Source: Candidatus Vogelbacteria bacterium (lineage in GTDB: Bacteria; Patescibacteriota; Minisyncoccia; Phycocordibacterales; XYD1-FULL-46-19). Taken from it: 64,000 nucleotides of DNA. Position numbers and translations under genes: made by a program. Position 1 is the stretch's first letter. Each line of letters starts with the position of its first letter. The stretch lies in assembly GCA_903878275.1 (NCBI GenBank), contig CAIRHC010000007.1, forward strand, positions 78,482-142,481. The letters are read 5' to 3'. Positions 24,249 to 64,000 of the stretch are shown piece after piece. The notes under the pieces are model-generated. The model ran no database searches. It worked only from the letters and a program-made list of their open reading frames with translations, and was not told where the DNA came from.

Positions 24249-24652
24249 GGGGATGATCGGCTTCGACAGGTAGCCTTTCTCTAGTGTGTATGTGGAGACT
24301 CCGAATCCTCCTTAAACATCGGAAAAACAGTCAAATGCCAACGCATCTGACAAGGGACTTGTGGCTTCGCCATATTTCTCTCCAGCCTTGGCTTTAGCCT
24401 AACGCTGGTGCTGGCTTAAATCGCAGTCTGGATGATTTAAGTTGGTATAATAAATTCTGGACTAGCAATTAAACATTTCTCGGTTTAAAAGCGAAACAAA
24501 GAGAATCGACTAATTAAGGTTTTGTTTGTTTAACACTTAGTTAGTTTAAATCCGCTCGGCGATTAGCCGAGCGGGACATAAACAATCTACACATATAGAT
24601 TCACTAAAGTAACCTATTTGCACGGGGGTTCGATTCCCCCCATCTCCACCCA
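24249..24652 (+). ncRNA. ssrA: tmRNA (ssrA)
   Basis: 5' GGGGATGATCGGCTTCGACAGG; 3' tRNA-like GGGGGTTCGATTCCCCC T-arm + CATCTCCACC with a G3:U wobble; internal tag ORF ending ..PALALA-TAA at 24337-24402. Confidence 0.8.
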
Positions 24653-24761
24653 AAGTTGACAATTTGTGTCAAAAGCATAATATATTGGTATAACTATGGA
24701 AGAGACCCTTATGTAGATACGTCTGCATCGGGGGCTTTTTCTTTTTGATTGGGCTTAAAGT

Positions 24762-25247
24762 TTAAGATGATTTTTTAGAAAACTTGTGATAATGTTCGTT
24801 AAGAAAAGTAATTTCGGTATTTTTATTTCTTAACAAAATTGAGCACTTGTTTTCGTCAGGAGAAATAACTCGATCTAAAACAGAATTATTATCCAAAAAT
24901 TCCACCAAGCAACCAAAATCGCCATCACCAGAAACGAGAATACATTTATCAAACGCTTTGTTATAAAAGTCAGAGACAGTTTTTAAAACCAGTTCGGCAT
25001 CGCAATTACCCTTAATTACTCCTCCAACCGAAACGGTTTGTTTGAAAACTAAAATAAAACCACATTCTTGCAGATGCTCGTAAAATTTGGTTCTCGTTGG
25101 AACGAGACCGATAAAAAGGTAGATATTTGAAGTGTCATATTTTTGCCGAAGCCAACCATAAAATTTTTTGTAATCAATTCCAAAACCAAGTTCTTTGGCT
25201 CCGCGATATAAATTATTGCCGTCAATATAAATGTTGGTTCTAATCAC
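24762..25247 (-). CDS. NYN-domain (LabA/DUF88-like) protein
   Basis: IYIDG.N...LVSGDGDF pattern. Confidence 0.65.
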   Translation of the reverse strand: MIRTNIYIDGNNLYRGAKELGFGIDYKKFYGWLRQKYDTSNIYLFIGLVPTRTKFYEHLQECGFILVFKQTVSVGGVIKGNCDAELVLKTVSDFYNKAFDKCILVSGDGDFGCLVEFLDNNSVLDRVISPDENKCSILLRNKNTEITFLNEHYHKFSKKSS

Positions 25248-37090: not shown

Positions 37091-39346
37091 TTATTCCCAA
37101 TGCGTCTCCTGTTTTTTGCTCGCCAACTTTTCGTTGAATTGCGGATAAGTTTTTAATTCGGGATCTTGGTCGATTATTTTTTCGGCTTCGGTTCTTGCCG
37201 CTTCAACCATTTTTAAATTTTTGATGGCTTCCATCCCGATGTCGGAAATGCCCCATTGTTTTTCTCCGGAGATGGTGCCGGAACCACGAAGAGCGAGATC
37301 GTGCTCGGCGAGCTCGAAACCGTTTTTGGCACTGACCAGAGCTTTTAATCGGCTCATCGATTTTTCATTTTTGGTTTCCGAAAAAATATAACAATAAGCT
37401 TGGTGATTGGAGCGAATGACGCGACCACGGAGCTGGTGAAGTTGTGCCAAGCCAAAACGTTCGGCACCTTCGATAATTATGATGGTGGCATTTGGTACAT
37501 TGACGCCGACTTCAATGACCGAGGTGGAGACGAGAATATTTATCTCGCCATCGGTAAATTGTTGCATCGTGTCCTCCTTGTCTTTTGGTTTTAATTTGCT
37601 GTGCATTACTTCAACCACGAATTCGGGAAAAACTTTATCTTGCAGGCGAATCGTCTCGGCTTTGGCGGATTTGGCTTGAACTGCCATTTCTTTTTCGGGG
37701 TCTGGTTCGTCAATGCGAGGGCAAATGACATAAGCTTGGCGACCAGCTTTTAATTCGGTGCGAATGTGCTCATAAGCTTCGTCGCGTTTGTCTGGCGGTA
37801 TAATTTTAGTAATGACGGGTTTTCGTCCGGCGGGCATTTGATCAAGTAAGGTCAAATCAAGGTCGCCAAAAACGGTGAGGGCGAGAGTGCGCGGAATTGG
37901 AGTGGCGGTCATCGAAAGTAGGTGAGGGAGTGGCTCCGGTTTGTTTTTGCCTGCACGAACGCCACTGGCGGGCGGGTCGCTGGTTCGACGGACAAGTTTG
38001 GCTCTCTGCATTACACCGAATCTGTGCTGTTCGTCGATAATTGCCAGACCGAGTTTTTTGAATTTAACCTTTTTTTGAATGAGCGCGTGGGTGCCGACGA
38101 GAATAGGGATTTCACCATTGGCGACCCATTTTAATAATGTGGTGCGAGAAATGTGGGTGGAATCGTGCGGGTCGATTTTTGAAGGAAATTTTTTACATTC
38201 TTTGCCGGTGATTAGCCCGATTTGAATATTCATATGCTCGAAATATTTTATAAATGATTCAAAATGTTGACGGGCGAGAATTTCGGTCGGTGCCATATAT
38301 GAGACTTCCAGACCGGCTTTGACCATCGCAAAAGTGGTGGCGGCGGCGACCATCGTCTTGCCCGAGCCGACATCGCCTTCGAGGAGGCGAACCATTGGTT
38401 TGTCGTCGGCAAAATCGGCTAAAATAATATCAATGGCTTTGGTTTGGGCGTCGGTCGGTTTAAAGGGAAAGCGATCAAGAAATTCTTTTAAATCTTTGCG
38501 ACCTAGTTTGGTTTTGAAGCTTGGGTTGCTTTGATAAATTTTCTTGTCCCGCAAACGAGCGAGTTGGATAAAAAAAACTTCTTCAAAAGCGAAACGTTTG
38601 CGAGCGGAAATAGAATCTTCTACTTTTTTTGGCAAATGAATCCAAACCAGCGCGGTTTTTAGCGACGGCAAATTATATTTTTTTAAAATTTCAGGTGGAA
38701 TCGGGTCAGTTATTTTGTCGTGCAGGTTGTTGCTAATTAATTTTTTGATGTGATAGTAAAACCAACCAGAAGAAATGCCTCGGGTTTCGGGATAGACTGG
38801 GATTAAAAAATTGTCGAGGTTGTTGCCGGAATCGCCTTCATAAAAAAGTGATTCTTTTTGGGCTTGCCAGCCAAGCGTGTCGCGGACTTCGGGGTTGGTG
38901 ATGTAGAGCTCGCCAGTTGGTGAAGACTTGGATGGCTCGCTGGTGCCCGCCGGCGACTTGTCGCCGGCGGGATGGTTCTTTCTTTTTTGCGACACTTTTC
39001 CGCGAAACTCGGCAAATTGTCCCTCGGCAATTTTTTTGGCGAGATATGGTTGATGAAACCAAACGATTTTTATTCGTCCGGTTTCATCTTCGACCACGGC
39101 TTCACCCATTGGAATTTTACTGCGGAAGCCTTTTTTGGTTTGAGCAGAAATAACTTTGCCGTAAATTACCACTTCATCGCCAGCTTTTAGGTCGGCAATT
39201 TTTTGGCGGTTGCCACTTTGTTCGTAACGGCTCGGCAAACACAAAAGCAAATCAGCCAAAGTTTCAACCTTTAGTTTTTTTAAGGCAACTTTTTGCAGGG
39301 GATTAAGTCGGAAGACTCGATCGATGTTGTCTTGAAGTTCCATCAA
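37091..39346 (-). CDS. recG: ATP-dependent DNA helicase RecG
   Basis: GDVGSGKT, DEQHRFG helicase motifs; N-terminal wedge domain. Confidence 0.88.
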   Translation of the reverse strand: MMELQDNIDRVFRLNPLQKVALKKLKVETLADLLLCLPSRYEQSGNRQKIADLKAGDEVVIYGKVISAQTKKGFRSKIPMGEAVVEDETGRIKIVWFHQPYLAKKIAEGQFAEFRGKVSQKRKNHPAGDKSPAGTSEPSKSSPTGELYITNPEVRDTLGWQAQKESLFYEGDSGNNLDNFLIPVYPETRGISSGWFYYHIKKLISNNLHDKITDPIPPEILKKYNLPSLKTALVWIHLPKKVEDSISARKRFAFEEVFFIQLARLRDKKIYQSNPSFKTKLGRKDLKEFLDRFPFKPTDAQTKAIDIILADFADDKPMVRLLEGDVGSGKTMVAAATTFAMVKAGLEVSYMAPTEILARQHFESFIKYFEHMNIQIGLITGKECKKFPSKIDPHDSTHISRTTLLKWVANGEIPILVGTHALIQKKVKFKKLGLAIIDEQHRFGVMQRAKLVRRTSDPPASGVRAGKNKPEPLPHLLSMTATPIPRTLALTVFGDLDLTLLDQMPAGRKPVITKIIPPDKRDEAYEHIRTELKAGRQAYVICPRIDEPDPEKEMAVQAKSAKAETIRLQDKVFPEFVVEVMHSKLKPKDKEDTMQQFTDGEINILVSTSVIEVGVNVPNATIIIIEGAERFGLAQLHQLRGRVIRSNHQAYCYIFSETKNEKSMSRLKALVSAKNGFELAEHDLALRGSGTISGEKQWGISDIGMEAIKNLKMVEAARTEAEKIIDQDPELKTYPQFNEKLASKKQETHWE

Positions 39347-39365
39347 AACATTATAGCAAAACAGA

Positions 39366-39400
39366 AAAAAACCGCCCCGTCCTTTGGCGGGGCGGTTTTT
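39366..39400. terminator. bidirectional terminator aaaaccgccccgtc-cttt-ggcggggcggttttt
   Basis: ACCGCCC-type stem. Confidence 0.65.
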
Positions 39401-39406
39401 AAAGTT

Positions 39407-39598
39407 TTAGCCTCCAACCTCGTTACTTATTGACGTGCCAGCGGGAATGTTTGGTTCACCCGTCGGGACAACCGTGGTTGTGGTAGGAATGATCGCTGGA
39501 GCTTCTGGAGCTTGAGCCGTATTTTTACTTGCAAAAAACCAAACTCCACTTGCGATAATAATGATAACGATAATTCCAATGATGTAGTTCTTATTCAT
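39407..39598 (-). CDS. small membrane-anchored protein (63 aa)
   Basis: N-terminal TM then Pro/Thr-rich tail; a second ~47-aa TM peptide is readable on the - strand at ~39630-39773. Confidence 0.4.
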   Translation of the reverse strand: MNKNYIIGIIVIIIIASGVWFFASKNTAQAPEAPAIIPTTTTVVPTGEPNIPAGTSISNEVGG

Positions 39599-39799
39599 AA
39601 TGTTTTATTTTAATAATATTTTTTTTAAATTTATTGTGGCTGACCAGGTCTTTCATTACATGGCCATAGCCCATTACAATCCTGTGCTCTTTTTGTTTTG
39701 ACAAAAAATAATACTGCGAAGGTCGATACTAGTAAAATAATAACAATTGCAATAATTAAATAAATTCTTTTCATATCTTCTAAATTTGTTTTGTTGTCG

Positions 39800-40003
39800 T
39801 TGTTGGGCAGGGATTTACCCTAAAGGGTATGAACTTCTCATCTCCGGCCTTCCGAGCAGAAGCCCAAAATTTGATAAAGAATTATCAAATTTTAAATTTT
39901 GCGGAGAGGCAGGGATTTACCCTAAAGGGTATAAACTTCTCATCTCCAGCCTTCCGTGCAGAAATTTAAAATCCGATACAAAAGTATCAAATTTTAAATT
40001 TTG
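39800..40003. repeat. two ~100-bp tandem direct repeats, each beginning with a copy of the tRNA-Ser 3' end (ttttgcggagaggcagggatt)
   Basis: read directly; the overlapping ORF 39786..40049 is a translation artefact. Confidence 0.6.
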
Positions 40004-40092
40004 CGGAGAGGCAGGGATTCGAACCCTGGAACCGATTTTACTCGGTTAACACATTAGCAGTGTGCCCCTTTCGGCCACTCAGGCACCTCTCC
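40004..40092 (-). tRNA. tRNA-Ser (anticodon GCU), class II long variable arm
   Basis: acceptor ggagagg/cctctcc, T-arm cagggttcgaatccctg, anticodon loop ctgctaa. Confidence 0.7.
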
Positions 40093-40179
40093 GTGATTAT
40101 TTAATTCTAGTCTAACCTTTAGACTTTATCACAATTTTGTATCTATGCCAAATGAGATTTTGGTGGTATATTTTAAACA

Positions 40180-40713
40180 ATGAATCAGAAAAATATTATT
40201 TTTAGCTTTATTATTTTGTCGCTTATTTTGATGGTAAGCTTTTTGGCCCTTAAATTTATTTCCCCTGCTTCACCTGTTGGTTTACCAAATCCCGCTTCGG
40301 TCAATTGTGAAGAAGTCGGTGGGACATTGGAAATTCGCACCGATTCAAATGGCGGGCAAACCGGCTATTGCACTTTGCCCGATAAAACTGTTTGTGAAGA
40401 ATGGGCGCTTTTGCGGAATGAATGTCGTCCTGCAAAGTGTGTTGATTGTGGCGTAGGTGGTTGGCAAAAAATGAGCGAAGTCTGTGTCCAACCTGTCCCT
40501 ACTAAAAACGACGCCAGAGGTTGTTTTATTAATTTTAGTTGGTCATCCGTTACCTCAACCACAAACATTGATGAAATAAAAGACGGATATATTGAAATAG
40601 GTGGCTTGGAAGTTCTTAAAAATCCAACCATCAAATCAATAAAAGTTTTTATTTATCATCAATGGGCGATTGACGAAGAAGGGAACCTGTATCTGTTGGG
40701 ACAGTTGGGATAG
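40180..40713 (+). CDS. DUF333 (putative-hemolysin-like) domain protein, membrane-anchored
   Basis: GLPNPASVNCEE.GG ... CEEWA..R.EC signature. Confidence 0.65.
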   Translation: MNQKNIIFSFIILSLILMVSFLALKFISPASPVGLPNPASVNCEEVGGTLEIRTDSNGGQTGYCTLPDKTVCEEWALLRNECRPAKCVDCGVGGWQKMSEVCVQPVPTKNDARGCFINFSWSSVTSTTNIDEIKDGYIEIGGLEVLKNPTIKSIKVFIYHQWAIDEEGNLYLLGQLG

Positions 40714-40847
40714 AAGATAAAAATTTGAAATCAAATTGGGTATAATTAATCAATGCGAAATTAAAAGAAAGAGGATCGCCCTTGTATTCAGCTGATTATT
40801 AAAAAATTAGGTTTGGTTTCGATATCTTATTTGTTATTATTTAGTGG

Positions 40848-42194
40848 ATGGATAAAAACAATAAAATGGTCGCTTGGTTTTTGTTGCTTGGTGTCAACAG
40901 CTTGCCTTTGTTGATCTGGCTTTTTATGGCACCTTGGTCAGAGCGGTTTGGTGGCTTCTGGCAAATTTTGACGAGCCTAGGGCAAATCTCGGCTTTGCTT
41001 GGTTTTTCTTTGATGGCGACGACGATAATTTTGACGGCACGTTTTCGCTGGCTGGAAAAAAATCTGCGTGGTTTGAATCGGGTTTTTATCAATCATCATT
41101 TGCTTGGCTCACTGTCTTTTATTTTGTTACTGTTTCATCCGCTGGTTTTGGCGATTCGTTATTTGTCGCTATCTATTAATAGTGCCGCGATTTTCCTTTT
41201 GCCAAGTTTAATTTTTTGGCAACGGACTCTCGGTACAATATCGCTTGCCATAATGATACTTCTGCTCATTATTACTTTTTATCTTGGCTGGCGTTATCAC
41301 CTTTGGAAATTTTCGCATCGTTTTTTGGTCTTGGCTTTTTTGATTGGCTTTTTACATACGGCTTTTATCGAAAGTGATGTTTCGCGAAATTTATTTTTGC
41401 GGTTTTATCTATTATCGCTTGGCGGTATTACTTTGATTGCCTATGCTTGGCGTTTGGCGGTGGAATTTGGCGGAATTGGCAAGAAAAAATATGTCATTTC
41501 AAATTTGCAGGAGGTTATCACGAATGTTTGGGAAGTGAGTTTGCGACCAAAAGGTGAAATTCTAAACTATCAAGCTGGTCAATTTGCTTTTTTATCGTTC
41601 ATTCAAGCGGGAATAAAAAGCGAAGAACATCCTTTTTCTTTCACTTCGGCGCCGGGTGAGTCGGAATTAAAATTTGTTATTAAAAATTTGGGGGATTTTA
41701 CTAGTCGATTAGGTGAATTAAAAGTGGGCGCCGAAGTTTTGGTGGAGGGTCCTTATGGTGTTTTTGGGCAGAGATTGGAAGATGCCGGCAGAATTTCTGC
41801 CGAAGCAGAAATTCTGCCGGCGGGTCAAACCTCCGAAATCTGGATCGCTGGCGGAGTTGGCATCACACCATTTATCAGTCTGGCGAAAGATTTAAAAAAC
41901 AATAATCGCCAGGTAGATTTGTATGTTGTTGCGAGATCAGAGAAAGAGGCGATTGGCATTGTCGAACTTAAACAAATTGCTCAAATGGCACCAAATCTCA
42001 AACTAATTCCGTATTATGATGATAGCGGTCAAGGTTTTTTGTCGGCTGATAAGGTTGAACAATTAAGTGGTTCGCCGCTTGGTCGCCAAATTTATATTTG
42101 TGGTCCGGCGCCAATGATGCGCTCACTTAAAACCCAATTTATTAATAAAGGTGTTGATACTAAAAATATTCATACCGAAGAATTTAGCTTGTAA
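40848..42194 (+). CDS. NOX/ferric-reductase-like flavocytochrome (TM heme domain + FAD/NAD-binding domain)
   Basis: 6 TM helices with His pairs; HPFSFTS FAD motif; GGVGITP NAD motif. Confidence 0.7.
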   Translation: MDKNNKMVAWFLLLGVNSLPLLIWLFMAPWSERFGGFWQILTSLGQISALLGFSLMATTIILTARFRWLEKNLRGLNRVFINHHLLGSLSFILLLFHPLVLAIRYLSLSINSAAIFLLPSLIFWQRTLGTISLAIMILLLIITFYLGWRYHLWKFSHRFLVLAFLIGFLHTAFIESDVSRNLFLRFYLLSLGGITLIAYAWRLAVEFGGIGKKKYVISNLQEVITNVWEVSLRPKGEILNYQAGQFAFLSFIQAGIKSEEHPFSFTSAPGESELKFVIKNLGDFTSRLGELKVGAEVLVEGPYGVFGQRLEDAGRISAEAEILPAGQTSEIWIAGGVGITPFISLAKDLKNNNRQVDLYVVARSEKEAIGIVELKQIAQMAPNLKLIPYYDDSGQGFLSADKVEQLSGSPLGRQIYICGPAPMMRSLKTQFINKGVDTKNIHTEEFSL

Positions 42195-52671: not shown

Positions 52672-53547
52672 AGCTGGAGGAGGCTTCGCCTCCTCTCAAA
52701 AACAAGGTGAAACAAGGTGAGGCAAAAACAAGGGGAGGTTGAAACAAGGGGAGGTTGAAACAAGGGGAGGTTGAGCCTCCCCTTTGGCGTTGGTTGTGTT
52801 ATAATATAATCAATGTCTCGTAATATTGAATTAGCGATTGATGAATATTATCACATCTTTAATCATGGCAACGGTGACCGACTAATTTTTATTGACGAAA
52901 AAGATAAAGAGCGATTTGTTAAACTACTCTTTTTAGCTAATGGTTGTAACTCTTTTGATTTTGAAGATCTTTCTTCTGGTCAAGAATTCTCTTTTGATCG
53001 TGGTGAGACACTCGTCGCCATTGGCACGTGGTGTTTAATGGATAATCATTATCATCTATTAATTAAAGAAACCACCGATGGTGGAATTAGTCAGTTTATG
53101 CATCGTCTAGCAACTAGCTATACAATGTATTTCAATCGTCGTCATAGAAAAAGGGGAAGTTTGTTTGAGGGACGGTTTCGAGCAAAACACTTAGGTCAGG
53201 ATGAATATTTAAGACATATCTTTGCTTACACCCATCTCAATCCCGTGAAAATGATTGAGCCAAAATGGAAAGAGGTTGGGTTGAAGAATTTGCCGACAGT
53301 CACTAAATTTTTAAAAGAGTATAGATTTTCTAGCTATCTTGATTATCTCGGCGTTGAGCGAAAAGAAAATAAAATTCTTGATAGAGGAGCTTTTCCGCAA
53401 TACTTTTCAAACCCGGAAGAGATCGAGGTTGAAATGATGGACTGGCTAGATTTCGGTAATTTTTATTAGGGTTAATTTTGGGGTGGGGGTCATCAATATT
53501 ATAACACAAATGATACCCCTAGGGGAGGCTCAACCTCCCGACGGGCA
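52672..53547 (+). mobile_element. IS200/RAYT-like element: HUH Y1 transposase gene flanked by inverted hairpin termini (ggggaggttgagcctcccc ... ttgtgttataatat)
   Basis: left end 52765-52806 and right end 53489-53541 are reverse complements of each other; stuttered partial repeats (aacaaggggaggttga x3) at the left end. Confidence 0.65.
52813..53469 (+). CDS. HUH-superfamily Y1 transposase (IS200-like / REP-associated tyrosine transposase-like)
   Basis: NHYHLL (HxH) and YTHLNPVK (Tyr + NPVK) motifs. Confidence 0.7.
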   Translation: MSRNIELAIDEYYHIFNHGNGDRLIFIDEKDKERFVKLLFLANGCNSFDFEDLSSGQEFSFDRGETLVAIGTWCLMDNHYHLLIKETTDGGISQFMHRLATSYTMYFNRRHRKRGSLFEGRFRAKHLGQDEYLRHIFAYTHLNPVKMIEPKWKEVGLKNLPTVTKFLKEYRFSSYLDYLGVERKENKILDRGAFPQYFSNPEEIEVEMMDWLDFGNFY

Positions 53548-62086: not shown

Positions 62087-64000
62087 ATGGTAGGAGATGT
62101 TTATAAAAAAGCTAAAGCACGGGCGGAAAAGCTCCGGGAGATTTTAAACCATCACCGGCATCTTTATCACGTGGAGGATAAGCCGGAAATTTCTGATCAA
62201 GCTTATGATTCAATGGAGGAGGAGCTCCGGCTTTTGGAAGAGCGGTTTCCGGATTTGGTGACGCCGGATTCACCGACCCAACGCGTGTCTGGCAAACCAC
62301 TAGATAAATTTGAAAAAATTACGCACACTGTGGCGCAATGGTCTTTTAATGATGCTTTTACGCCGGATGATTTGCGCGATTTTGACAAACGGGTGAAGAG
62401 GATGCTGGGGACGCCGGCATTTTTGCCGGGGGCAAAAATGCCGGCCGAACCGACTTATGTTTGCGAATTAAAAATTGACGGTTTGCACACCGTTCTAACT
62501 TACAAAAATGGTTTGCTGGAAACGGCGGCGACTCGCGGTGATGGCGTGGTGGGAGAAAATGTGACCGCCAACGTCCGGACTATCGAAAGTGTCCCGCTTC
62601 GTTTGAAAGAACCGGTCTCGATTGTTGCCGAAGGTGAGATTTGGCTAGGCTTGGATCAAATGCAAAAAATAAATGCCGAGCGGAAAAAAAATGGCGAACC
62701 AGAATTTGCTAATCCACGTAATGCCGCCGCCGGCACAATCCGTCAACTTGATTCGCGGGTTGTCGCGGGGCGCAAACTCGATACTTTTATTTATGATCTG
62801 TCGGCTGGTGAAAATCCCGACACGCAAGTCGCCGAGCTGAAGCGTCTTGAAAAGTTGGGTTTTAAGGTGAACAAAGAATTTGCCGAATGCAAAAATATTG
62901 AAGAGGCAATTAAGTTTTGGCAAAAATGGCAAAAGAAAAAAGATACGCAAGATTTTTTGATTGACGGTATTGTGGTCAAGGTCAACGAAAGATATTTTCA
63001 GGAAAAATTGGGTTATACCGGCAAAGCGCCGAGATTTGCCATTGCTTTTAAATTTCCTGCCGAACAGGCGACGACCGTGGTGGAAAGTATTGTGTTGCAA
63101 GTCGGTCGGCAGGGAAATATCACACCAGTCGCCAATCTTCGCCCAGTTTTACTTGCTGGCTCGACGGTCTCGCGGGCGACCTTGCATAATGAAGATGAAA
63201 TAAAACGACTTGATGTCCGTGTCGGCGATACGGTGATTTTGCAAAAAGCGGGCGATGTAATTCCCGACATTGTGCAAGTCTTGCCAGAGCTTCGTACCGG
63301 TAAAGAAAAAGTTTTTAAATGGCCAGATCAGCTTGAAGCTTGCTTGCCCGTCGGAGTTTCGACGAATAGGGGCGGTGGGGCGATCGAAAGAATTACCGGA
63401 CAGTCGGCGTGGCGTTGTGTTAATAAAAATTCTTTTGCGCAACAAAAACGAAAGTTTTATCATTTTGCTTCGAAGGGTGCGTTTAATATTGAAAAGCTCG
63501 GTCCGAAAATTATTGATGTGTTACTGGAAAATAAATTGCTATCTAGTTATGAAGATATTTTTAGTTTAAAAAAAGGGGATTTGCTGGCTTTGCCAAGATT
63601 TGCGGAAAAATCGGTGGAAAATTTGCTCGGGGCGATAGAAGAACGACGAGAAATTACTTTGCCGAGATTTATTGTGGCGATGTCAATTCCCAATGTTGGC
63701 GAAGAAACCGCCGAAGATTTAGCGGAGCATTTTGAGACACTAGAAAAAATTGCCGAAGCGAAACTTGAAGAATTGCAAGCGATCGAAGGTATCGGTGGTG
63801 TTGTTGCCCAGTCGGTTTTTGATTGGTTTCGTCAAAAAGAAAATAAAAAACTAGTGTCTAATTTACTAAACAAAATAAAGCTCATTTTCCCCGAAACTAA
63901 GTTTCGGGGAAAGGGGAAACTGGCTGGACAGACTTTTGTTCTGACTGGCACATTACCAACTTTATCTCGTGATGAAGCAAAAGAATTAATCAGGAAAAAT
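62087..64000 (+). CDS. ligA: NAD-dependent DNA ligase LigA (5' partial, runs off the window)
   Basis: open frame from ATG 62087 to the window end; CELKIDGL adenylation-site lysine motif. Confidence 0.85.
   Translation, partial: MVGDVYKKAKARAEKLREILNHHRHLYHVEDKPEISDQAYDSMEEELRLLEERFPDLVTPDSPTQRVSGKPLDKFEKITHTVAQWSFNDAFTPDDLRDFDKRVKRMLGTPAFLPGAKMPAEPTYVCELKIDGLHTVLTYKNGLLETAATRGDGVVGENVTANVRTIESVPLRLKEPVSIVAEGEIWLGLDQMQKINAERKKNGEPEFANPRNAAAGTIRQLDSRVVAGRKLDTFIYDLSAGENPDTQVAELKRLEKLGFKVNKEFAECKNIEEAIKFWQKWQKKKDTQDFLIDGIVVKVNERYFQEKLGYTGKAPRFAIAFKFPAEQATTVVESIVLQVGRQGNITPVANLRPVLLAGSTVSRATLHNEDEIKRLDVRVGDTVILQKAGDVIPDIVQVLPELRTGKEKVFKWPDQLEACLPVGVSTNRGGGAIERITGQSAWRCVNKNSFAQQKRKFYHFASKGAFNIEKLGPKIIDVLLENKLLSSYEDIFSLKKGDLLALPRFAEKSVENLLGAIEERREITLPRFIVAMSIPNVGEETAEDLAEHFETLEKIAEAKLEELQAIEGIGGVVAQSVFDWFRQKENKKLVSNLLNKIKLIFPETKFRGKGKLAGQTFVLTGTLPTLSRDEAKELIRKN

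Follow-up and report, generated by a model that had tools for sequence, protein, structure and literature searches.

A tandem repeat behind tRNA-Ser(GCU) in a Vogelbacteria genome with the layout of RtT and of trailer modules in related bacteria

Immediately behind the tRNA-Ser(GCU) gene of a Candidatus Vogelbacteria bacterium (contig CAIRHC010000007.1), within the stretch of 64,000 nucleotides that we analysed as a whole and refer to as the window, the 3' end of the tRNA is repeated in a short tandem array. We propose that this array is a tRNA-linked repeat resembling the RtT repeats of Escherichia coli: a hairpin module formed from the tRNA's own 3' end, tandemly duplicated, probably co-transcribed with the tRNA, and akin in its layout to a family of trailer modules in bacteria of the Candidate Phyla Radiation (CPR). 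We put the probability of this reading at roughly 0.55. It is carried by the anatomy of the module, by its reproduction in separate assemblies, by the family resemblance, and by the derivation of its second unit from the first. The window has a GC content of about 40%, and the RecG protein encoded near the array is 78% identical to that of an uncultured Patescibacteria metagenome-assembled genome and 54–67% identical to those of Paceibacterota, Vogelbacteria, Nomurabacteria and Yonathbacteria genomes, which places the organism in the Paceibacteria group of the CPR.

The tandem array behind tRNA-Ser(GCU)

The window was analysed with Tandem Repeats Finder (TRF), a search for direct and inverted repeats, ARAGORN and Rfam, and folds were predicted with z-scores obtained from shuffled sequences. 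The features of the array, read from the tRNA downstream, are the following.

40004..40092, minus strand: tRNA-Ser(GCU) (ARAGORN; Rfam RF00005, 54.7 bits); no CCA is encoded
40004-40019, minus strand: copy X1 of the repeated tail, made up of the final 16 nt of tRNA-Ser(GCU), AATCCCTGCCTCTCCG on the tRNA strand
39962..40001, minus strand: hairpin H of the proximal unit, an AT-rich stem of 18 bp, two of its pairs being U:G as read on the tRNA strand, with a UUUU loop and runs of A and U on its flanks (fold and inverted repeat)
39942..39956, minus strand: X' of the proximal unit, CGGAAGGCTGGAGAT, a degenerate copy of the 3' end of the tRNA in antisense orientation, pairing with X2 in the predicted fold
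39919..39930, minus strand: central mini-hairpin of the proximal unit, ACCCTTTAGGGT, 12 nt (fold)
39902..39917, minus strand: X2 of the proximal unit, identical to the tRNA's final 16 nt; together with the preceding AGGGTA it makes a T-arm-like hairpin with a 5-nt loop
39866..39893, minus strand: hairpin H of the distal unit, a 12-bp perfect stem (inverted repeat and fold)
39840..39854, minus strand: X' of the distal unit, CGGAAGGCCGGAGAT (alignment)
39806..39828, minus strand: mini-hairpin and truncated X2 of the distal unit, AGGGTAAATCCCTGCC, followed by unrelated CAACAA (sequence and fold)

TRF reports a tandem repeat at 39806-40019 with a period of 102 nt, 2.1 copies and 89% matches, and the repeat search aligns 39806-39907 with 39908-40009 at 88%, which bears out the direct repeats of about 100 bp described in an earlier note on this DNA. 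The repeat runs beyond the end of the tRNA across the entire spacer: the whole 102-nt unit is repeated, at 88–89%, and the 82 nt between the tail copies are non-coding. The same note had the last 21 nt or so of the tRNA recurring twice more, at 39808 and 39908. This holds for a shorter piece, the 10-mer GGCAGGGATT, which occurs three times (39806, 39908 and 40010) against an expectation of 0.10, a number reached in none of 100 shuffles, whereas the 21-mer TTTTGCGGAGAGGCAGGGATT is found only twice (39897 and 39999), even with 3 mismatches allowed. The leftmost copy of the tail retains only GGCAGGGATTT, the T-stem part, and its acceptor part is gone. Likeness to the tRNA also exceeds 21 nt, with AGGGT--AAATCCCTGCCTCTCCG covering the whole T arm and the 3' strand of the acceptor at 22 of 24 matching positions.

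The array is identical in two other samples. In one (L004, ERZ18632576) it is spanned in full without a difference in sequence, and the other (L001, ERZ18632216) reproduces the proximal unit together with the diagnostic end of the distal one; other contigs of the same organism end exactly at the repeat. Because two independent metagenome assemblies reproduce it, an assembly artefact, against which the earlier note had cautioned, is ruled out.

Anatomy and predicted fold of the 102-nt unit

On the tRNA strand each unit has the order AT-rich hairpin H, degenerate antisense tail copy X', 12-nt hairpin and sense copy X2, the last of which corresponds to the T arm and the 3' strand of the acceptor. 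The proximal unit spans 40002 down to 39902. Its minimum free energy fold (-35.6 kcal/mol, z = -5.4) consists of H and a second hairpin closed by a stem between X' and X2, which in this model would imitate the acceptor/T-stem stack of the unit's own tRNA. X' agrees with the antisense of the tRNA in 15 matches over 21 aligned columns (2 gaps). Identity between X2 and the tRNA begins at A58, and the module ends where the tRNA does, at the discriminator. The mini-hairpin ACCCTTTAGGGT occupies the place where, by comparison with the family members described below, related elements hold a three-way-junction core of about 90 nt.

The two units differ at 12–13 positions. Hairpin H is kept in the distal unit, with a compensatory change from A:T to C:G at the top of its stem, while the partial sense copy (39806-39816) stops after ...CCCTGCC. 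In the X2 copies of both units the T loop has changed from TTCGAAT to TAAAT, a deletion of 2 nt. Both units share this derived deletion as well as the internal hairpin, and therefore the second is a copy of the first, made after the deletion had occurred. The array is thus composed of one complete and one 3'-truncated unit and goes back to the duplication of a single unit after the T-loop deletion, not to two integrations.

Comparison with the RtT repeats of E. coli

The tyrT locus of E. coli reportedly contains a 178-bp unit 3.14 times over, each ending in the tail of tRNA-Tyr. We find behind tyrV of strain K-12 an array with a period of 178, 3.1 copies and 95% identity that overlaps the tRNA tail, and the Rfam model of RtT (RF00391), for which we set membership at 45 bits or more, matches this array four times (controls 133–137 bits). 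The outer stem of the RtT consensus pairs an antisense GgGaaGG with the sense tail CCuuCcC, and the RNA ends in ...CCACCA. As in the window, identity to the tail of the E. coli tRNA begins at A58. PMC3318445, citing Bosl and Kersten 1991, gives the rtT RNA as encoded by one repeat unit of the tyrT operon, and a preprint (bioRxiv 10.1101/2024.07.17.603846) describes it as having a part in tyrT transcript processing and, possibly, in the stringent response.

The window array agrees with the RtT repeats of the tyrT-tyrV locus (RF00391; rttR, tpr) in several respects. It lies directly 3' of a tRNA gene on the same strand, its unit ends in a copy of the tail, and this unit is repeated in tandem (102 bp, 2.1 copies, against 178 bp, 3.1 copies). 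An upstream antisense stretch pairs with the sense tail to form an outer stem, which is present in the proximal unit only, with p ~0.04 for the antisense similarity. Letters at the junctions are also alike in the window and in E. coli, namely GGAUGAGAAG... and ...G(A/G)GUAAUCC, which we regard as no more than a lead; in the CPR family GATGAGA is rare among the junction variants. The differences lie in the internal part, which measures 12 nt in the window against about 90 nt with several hairpins in RtT, in the missing CCA of the window copy, which the tRNA gene does not encode either, in the host, which is a CPR bacterium and not an enterobacterium, and in the lack of a tpr-like open reading frame (ORF) of comparable length, the window having only an 8-codon frame AUG-AGA-AGU....

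The tpr ORF of E. coli K-12 (L218, 1287087-1287176) begins at AUGAGAAGC, directly after the antisense tail copy of RtT. At the corresponding place the window reads AUGAGAAGU (39918-39944), in a frame that stays open for 8 codons.

A family of tRNA and tmRNA trailer modules in Paceibacteria

Copies of tRNA tails are frequent in related genomes. Our comparison set consisted of 68 RecG-syntenic loci from GTDB species genomes with 104 tRNA genes, and for 15 of these genes the final 18 nt turn up again in the same locus with up to 2 mismatches, mostly 40–530 nt downstream on the same strand; inverted exceptions are L016 and a reciprocal tRNA-Ser pair in L061. Two classes can be told apart. The first is a module of about 170 nt behind tRNA-Ser(GCU), tRNA-Ser(ACU) and some tRNA-Ile(UAU) genes, in which a terminator-like hairpin, an antisense tail copy that includes the T loop, a conserved core (AGGCGGAG-hairpin-GAGCCGGGGTCG-hairpin-CGTGACCGA) and an exact sense tail copy follow one another. 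The second, behind many tRNA-Ile(UAU) genes, is a copy of the 3' 41 nt that begins in the anticodon loop. Where tRNA-Ile(UAU) stands next to recG (L013, L029, L030, L032, L034, L051, L057, L062 and L073), it is followed after 17–45 nt by one to three copies of these 41 nt, starting exactly at the anticodon, and L062 and L073 each hold the other's acceptor variant as the downstream half.

Scanning metagenomes with a strict pattern of the core gave at least 120 stretches, and 80 loci (L098-L177) were read. A same-strand tRNA ends 20–100 nt upstream of 61 of the 82 cores in these loci, with essentially all tRNA identities represented, and several of the remaining cores follow tmRNA genes. All loci examined contain 230 tRNA and tmRNA genes, of which 53 are followed on the same strand, within 900 nt, by a copy of their final 16 nt with no more than 1 mismatch, usually 130–210 nt away and sometimes two in tandem; the 102 nt of the window is the shortest spacing among them. 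Of 55 blocks of identity, 33 begin at C56 and 11 at A58; they reach 0–3 nt further than the tRNA itself and take in the CCA of those genes that encode one. Tandem arrays of the module occur in L014, L026, L031, L115, L118 and L121.

The core of the module, about 105 nt long, is a structured element with very strong covariation. RNAalifold predicted 25 pairs from nine cores, 20 of them with compensatory changes, and R1, the covariance model of the three-way-junction core that we built, recovers 25 cores from the RecG loci and 104 from the metagenome loci read (core-bearing loci are L014, L015, L016, L018, L021, L024-L026, L030-L032, L035, L047, L051 and L057, and L098-L177). Across 104 aligned cores 94% of the cells are paired, compared with 28–50% when the partners are slid, and double changes are seen in 24 of the 25 pairs, values that none of 500 shuffles reached. 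A single pair, G:U as read on the tRNA strand, is nearly invariant, being conserved in 95 of 103 sequences. The family is apparently undescribed: Rfam 15 has no family for either the window repeats or the core, and cmscan found only tRNA and tmRNA in the window region 38500-41500 (E <= 10) and in six family loci (E <= 1). With the RtT repeats of E. coli, R1 has only the apical UCGAGCGnCnGCGAGA motif in common (E = 0.2–0.4).

Cores are no more similar within a contig than between contigs (identity 0.44 in both cases), which rules out a recent intragenomic burst. Clustering of cores by tRNA type, as expected from vertical co-inheritance, is not supported either (0.47 versus 0.455, p = 0.27). Conversely, cores that are 87–97% identical stand beside different genes, such as tRNA-Ser(GCU) and tRNA-Ala(GGC), tRNA-Ser(UGA) and tmRNA, or tRNA-Val(CAC) and tRNA-Val(UAC). 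Their similarity is bounded sharply by ..TCGA|AAGRCGG...GTGACCGA|AT.., with antisense and sense flanks that follow the local tRNA; at the left junction the sequence is in every case antisense to the T-loop variant of the local gene, and several different core types fill the same frame. Such behaviour is compatible with a frame that derives from the tail of the tRNA itself and can receive a discrete non-coding unit in its centre.

No gene that might serve such a unit recurs around it: clustering of the 543 ORFs within 3 kb of 80 cores yielded only housekeeping families and a helix-turn-helix protein in five loci, without a recurrent recombinase, reverse transcriptase or other gene. Among the 2.9 million viral contigs of IMG/VR the core is absent save for one chance match inside a high-GC ORF, and the matches of the tail 17-mer are mostly tRNA-Ser genes of other hosts, so a phage or viral origin of the core was rejected. 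We also discarded the possibility of an intron in the T loop, as in silico removal of the element yielded no predicted tRNA in the 13 loci without an upstream tRNA call, save one isolated prediction among about 29,000 variants; these 13 loci hold tmRNA genes or, possibly, intron-containing tRNAs.

The window module shares with this family the succession of hairpin, antisense tail, central structure and sense tail from the T loop to the tRNA end, the tandem arrangement, and the clade of the host. It differs in lacking the core, in its spacing (102 against 130–210 nt), and in the centre of its palindrome, which lies in the T stem and not, as in the family, in the T loop. Judged by sequence, the window units are a core-less miniature of the Paceibacteria frame only, and the link between the two is architectural.

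Some loci of the comparison set deserve separate mention. Upstream of the cores in L143 and L157 there are tRNA-like 3' ends missed by ARAGORN, which may belong to genes interrupted by group I introns in the anticodon loop, by analogy with the tRNA genes of this kind that PMC13011429 describes for Patescibacteria. A 3200-bp contig (L170, JACCDH011157894.1) has a terminal overlap of 127 nt, implying a circle or tandem repeat of 3,073 bp, and carries a canonical core, a DUF3800 gene and small ORFs without any tRNA. Beside tRNA-Ser(GCU), L014, L015, L017, L021, L027, L028, L042, L043 and L061 have a tRNA with anticodon ACU, called tRNA-Ser by ARAGORN. A serine tRNA with A34 is unusual.

Origin of the array: integration, neutral duplication or a local module

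The earlier note had taken the tail copies for the attL/attR scar of integrase-mediated insertion, left by repeated integration and excision or by a mini-element without genes. The copies are indeed genuine duplicates of the tRNA 3' end that start in the T loop, and on this reading they would be att-type duplicates from a crossover in the T loop, with the interior since deleted or with the 102-nt unit mobilised in trans. They resemble the traces of known islands and prophages, as far as PMC4383910, PMC1762012 and PMC3146451 describe these: integrases that split tRNA genes leave a displaced 3' fragment (PMC4383910, with the Islander definition of tDNA islands), tyrosine integrases may cross over within the T loop, as given for attP/attB of Ms6 (PMC1762012), and tandem islands bounded by repeats of the ssrA tail are reported from Dehalococcoides (PMC3146451). 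Downstream of the tRNA in the window lies just such a fragment in direct orientation, exact at 39902-39917 and partial at 39806-39816, and AGGG-TAAAT-CCCT resembles the inverted repeat of a core-type site. We found the 17-mer of the tail in 22 viral contigs, where it mostly forms part of a tRNA-Ser gene from an unrelated host, and in a positive control from a host of 61–65% GC (L076) it flanks a real provirus, with tRNA-Ser(GGA), an adjacent PF00589 integrase (6.3e-28), cargo and a second copy 13.4 kb away. The near-identical family cores beside different tRNAs, with their sharp boundaries in the T loop, are insertion-like as well.

However, flanks are unrelated and only the core is shared in an att scar, whereas in the window the whole unit, spacer included, is repeated. 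The common 2-nt loop deletion indicates duplication after decay, the antisense copy is unaccounted for by integration, and a circle of 82–102 bp would be implausibly small for integrase synapsis. A Pfam scan returned no PF00589 match at E <= 1e-4 among 30 window ORFs, a set that includes all those of integrase-like size and covers ribosomal, Sec, FtsH, RNase J-like and type IV pilus genes, several of its members being without any Pfam match. Nothing is encoded between the copies, so that integrase and cargo, which are present in the control provirus and in tDNA islands, are both missing from the window. No integrase was seen near 80 family members either; dozens of other tRNA and tmRNA genes are followed by the same layout and have no integrase in their neighbourhood, and the core is practically absent from the viral contigs. 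An attL/attR scar of repeated integration and excision is not supported by these observations. Cis-mobilisable elements (CIMEs) of streptococci are att-flanked and lack an integrase, but are kilobases long and derived from integrative and conjugative elements (ICEs). Like them, the window array would be gene-poor DNA between att repeats, movable by an integrase in trans; unlike them it is short, and the window shows no sign of an ICE or an integrase. A gene-less mini-element may lie behind the window repeat but is unsupported, and an integrase footprint of either kind appears unlikely to us.

Still somewhat less probable is a purely neutral history, in which slippage between the tRNA tail and a chance or relic copy downstream duplicated 102 bp without function that have been decaying since. 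The truncation of the distal unit, its substitutions relative to the proximal one and the lack of a conserved core agree with such a history, as do the neutral-looking mismatches in the outer stem of the family. Against it stand the recurrence of the modular layout at numerous tRNA and tmRNA genes that are independent of one another, as well as in E. coli, the conservation of hairpin H in both units with a compensatory change, and the identity of the array across separate samples. The least probable of the alternatives, in our estimation, is an empty or decayed landing pad, where the palindrome of X' and X2 would be the target of a mobile core of about 105 nt that the window copy has lost or never received. 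The sharply bounded, near-identical cores next to different tRNAs or tmRNA, the flanks and left junction that follow the local gene, and the filling of one frame by several core types speak for this explanation. Yet no mobilising gene was identified, the hairpins around the RAYT-like gene of the window (see below) are different ones of its own, cores are as alike between contigs as within them, and no other core-less frame is found among the 230 tRNA genes.

An RtT-like module made locally from the tRNA tail would account for the antisense copy, but several results count against it. The antisense similarity of X' is marginal when taken alone (shuffle p ~0.04–0.05), and the outer stem cannot form in the distal unit, where the acceptor part is lost. 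By sequence the window unit is not a member of either comparison group: the RtT model RF00391 has no match in 38500-41500 at E <= 10, and the repeat has no R1 match, the best one in the window being at 62377-62453 with E = 0.65. The closest relatives (L007-L010 and L067) carry the tRNA in the opposite orientation and have no repeat, so a clean orthologous comparison is not available. Finally, selection at the RNA level on the outer stem of the family is not supported, with 88 G:U against 100 A:C mismatches.

A possible mechanism and its significance

If the array is an RtT-like module, it would have arisen from the tRNA's own 3' end by a local inverted-plus-direct duplication, for instance through template switching at the trailer hairpin and the self-complementary T arm, and it would grow by slippage or unequal exchange between tail copies of 16–21 nt. 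Transcribed together with the tRNA and two small ORFs downstream, it would present a tRNA-like end to be cut by tRNA-processing enzymes and may act as a processing or punctuation unit, in analogy to the rtT RNA released from the tyrT transcript. More tentatively, there may be a large, undescribed superfamily of elements in CPR bacteria whose anchor is the T loop and the 3' end of tRNA and tmRNA genes; the window units would be its smallest representatives and the RtT repeats of E. coli a distant cousin. The full forms could then be either a novel T-loop-targeting non-coding mobile element, single-stranded, hairpin-dependent and without a gene of its own, or a novel tRNA-mimicking RNA cut by the tRNA-processing machinery.

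Duplicated tRNA tails are routinely taken as scars of integration and are used to delimit genomic islands. They have a second recurrent source here, and such duplicates would mislead island finders and tRNA annotation in CPR genomes. The 178-bp repeats of E. coli tyrT and the rtT RNA, known for 45 years, can now be linked with a far larger set of examples, behind all kinds of tRNA and behind tmRNA in bacteria with minimal genomes. The covariation, the junction rules and the arrays are comparative data that make the origin and role of tRNA-linked repeats testable. Mobility of the core, if true, would leave precise empty sites of the form ...GGGATTCGA|ATCCC..., and if the core is either mobile or processed as a tRNA mimic, it would represent a new class of RNA or DNA element in a major, poorly known part of the bacterial tree.

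Neighbouring genes and other observations

Directly downstream of the repeats lie the two small ORFs.

39407..39774, minus strand: two small ORFs of 47 and 63 aa with hydrophobic N-termini (ORF list)

Their products, which have no Pfam match, are probably membrane proteins, to judge from the translated sequence, and the 63-aa protein recurs in other samples; exact-sequence look-ups of the 47-aa ORF and of recG gave no match. The sole strong intrinsic terminator downstream of the tRNA is found at 39367-39400, with recG next. The AT-rich H hairpins are not called by the terminator scan, which requires GC. Because the first strong terminator follows the ORFs, the tRNA and both small ORFs are probably one transcript, and the repeats would thus lie inside an RNA running from the tRNA promoter through the small ORFs.

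The tmRNA gene of the window (24249-24650, tag ANASDKGLVASPYFSPALALA) has no trailer module behind it (24651-25000), unlike the tmRNA genes in L106, L129, L135 and L160. In L017 (339-959) the final 17–19 nt of tRNA-Ser(GCU) recur exactly 529 nt downstream of the gene, and the interval contains a single small ORF (about 125 aa), which makes a one-gene cassette bounded by tail repeats.

Elsewhere in the window, on the plus strand at 52813-53469, there is a gene for a Y1 (HUH) transposase similar to the tyrosine transposases associated with repetitive extragenic palindromes (REPs), or RAYTs (PF01797, 9.7e-9; NF047646, 4.5e-11, below the cut-off; HYH and Y..HLNP motifs). It sits in a type IV pilus gene cluster, is preceded by short tandem repeats of AAACAAGGGGAGGTTG at about 52690-52765, and is flanked by inverted GGGAGGTTGAGCCTCCC hairpins at 52765-52781 and 53523-53539; these are the only two occurrences of GGGAGGTTGAGCCTCCC (52765 and 53523). 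A RAYT/REP link to the tRNA repeat was ruled out, since these hairpins are unrelated to it, and the homologue in L144 has yet another hairpin.

The orientation of tRNA-Ser(GCU) and tRNA-Ile(UAU) with respect to recG flips among related genomes. tRNA-Ser(GCU) is co-oriented with recG in the window and divergent from it in the closest relatives, and between L026 and L031 a segment of 131 nt comprising tRNA-Ile and its hairpin, 97.7% identical, is inverted.

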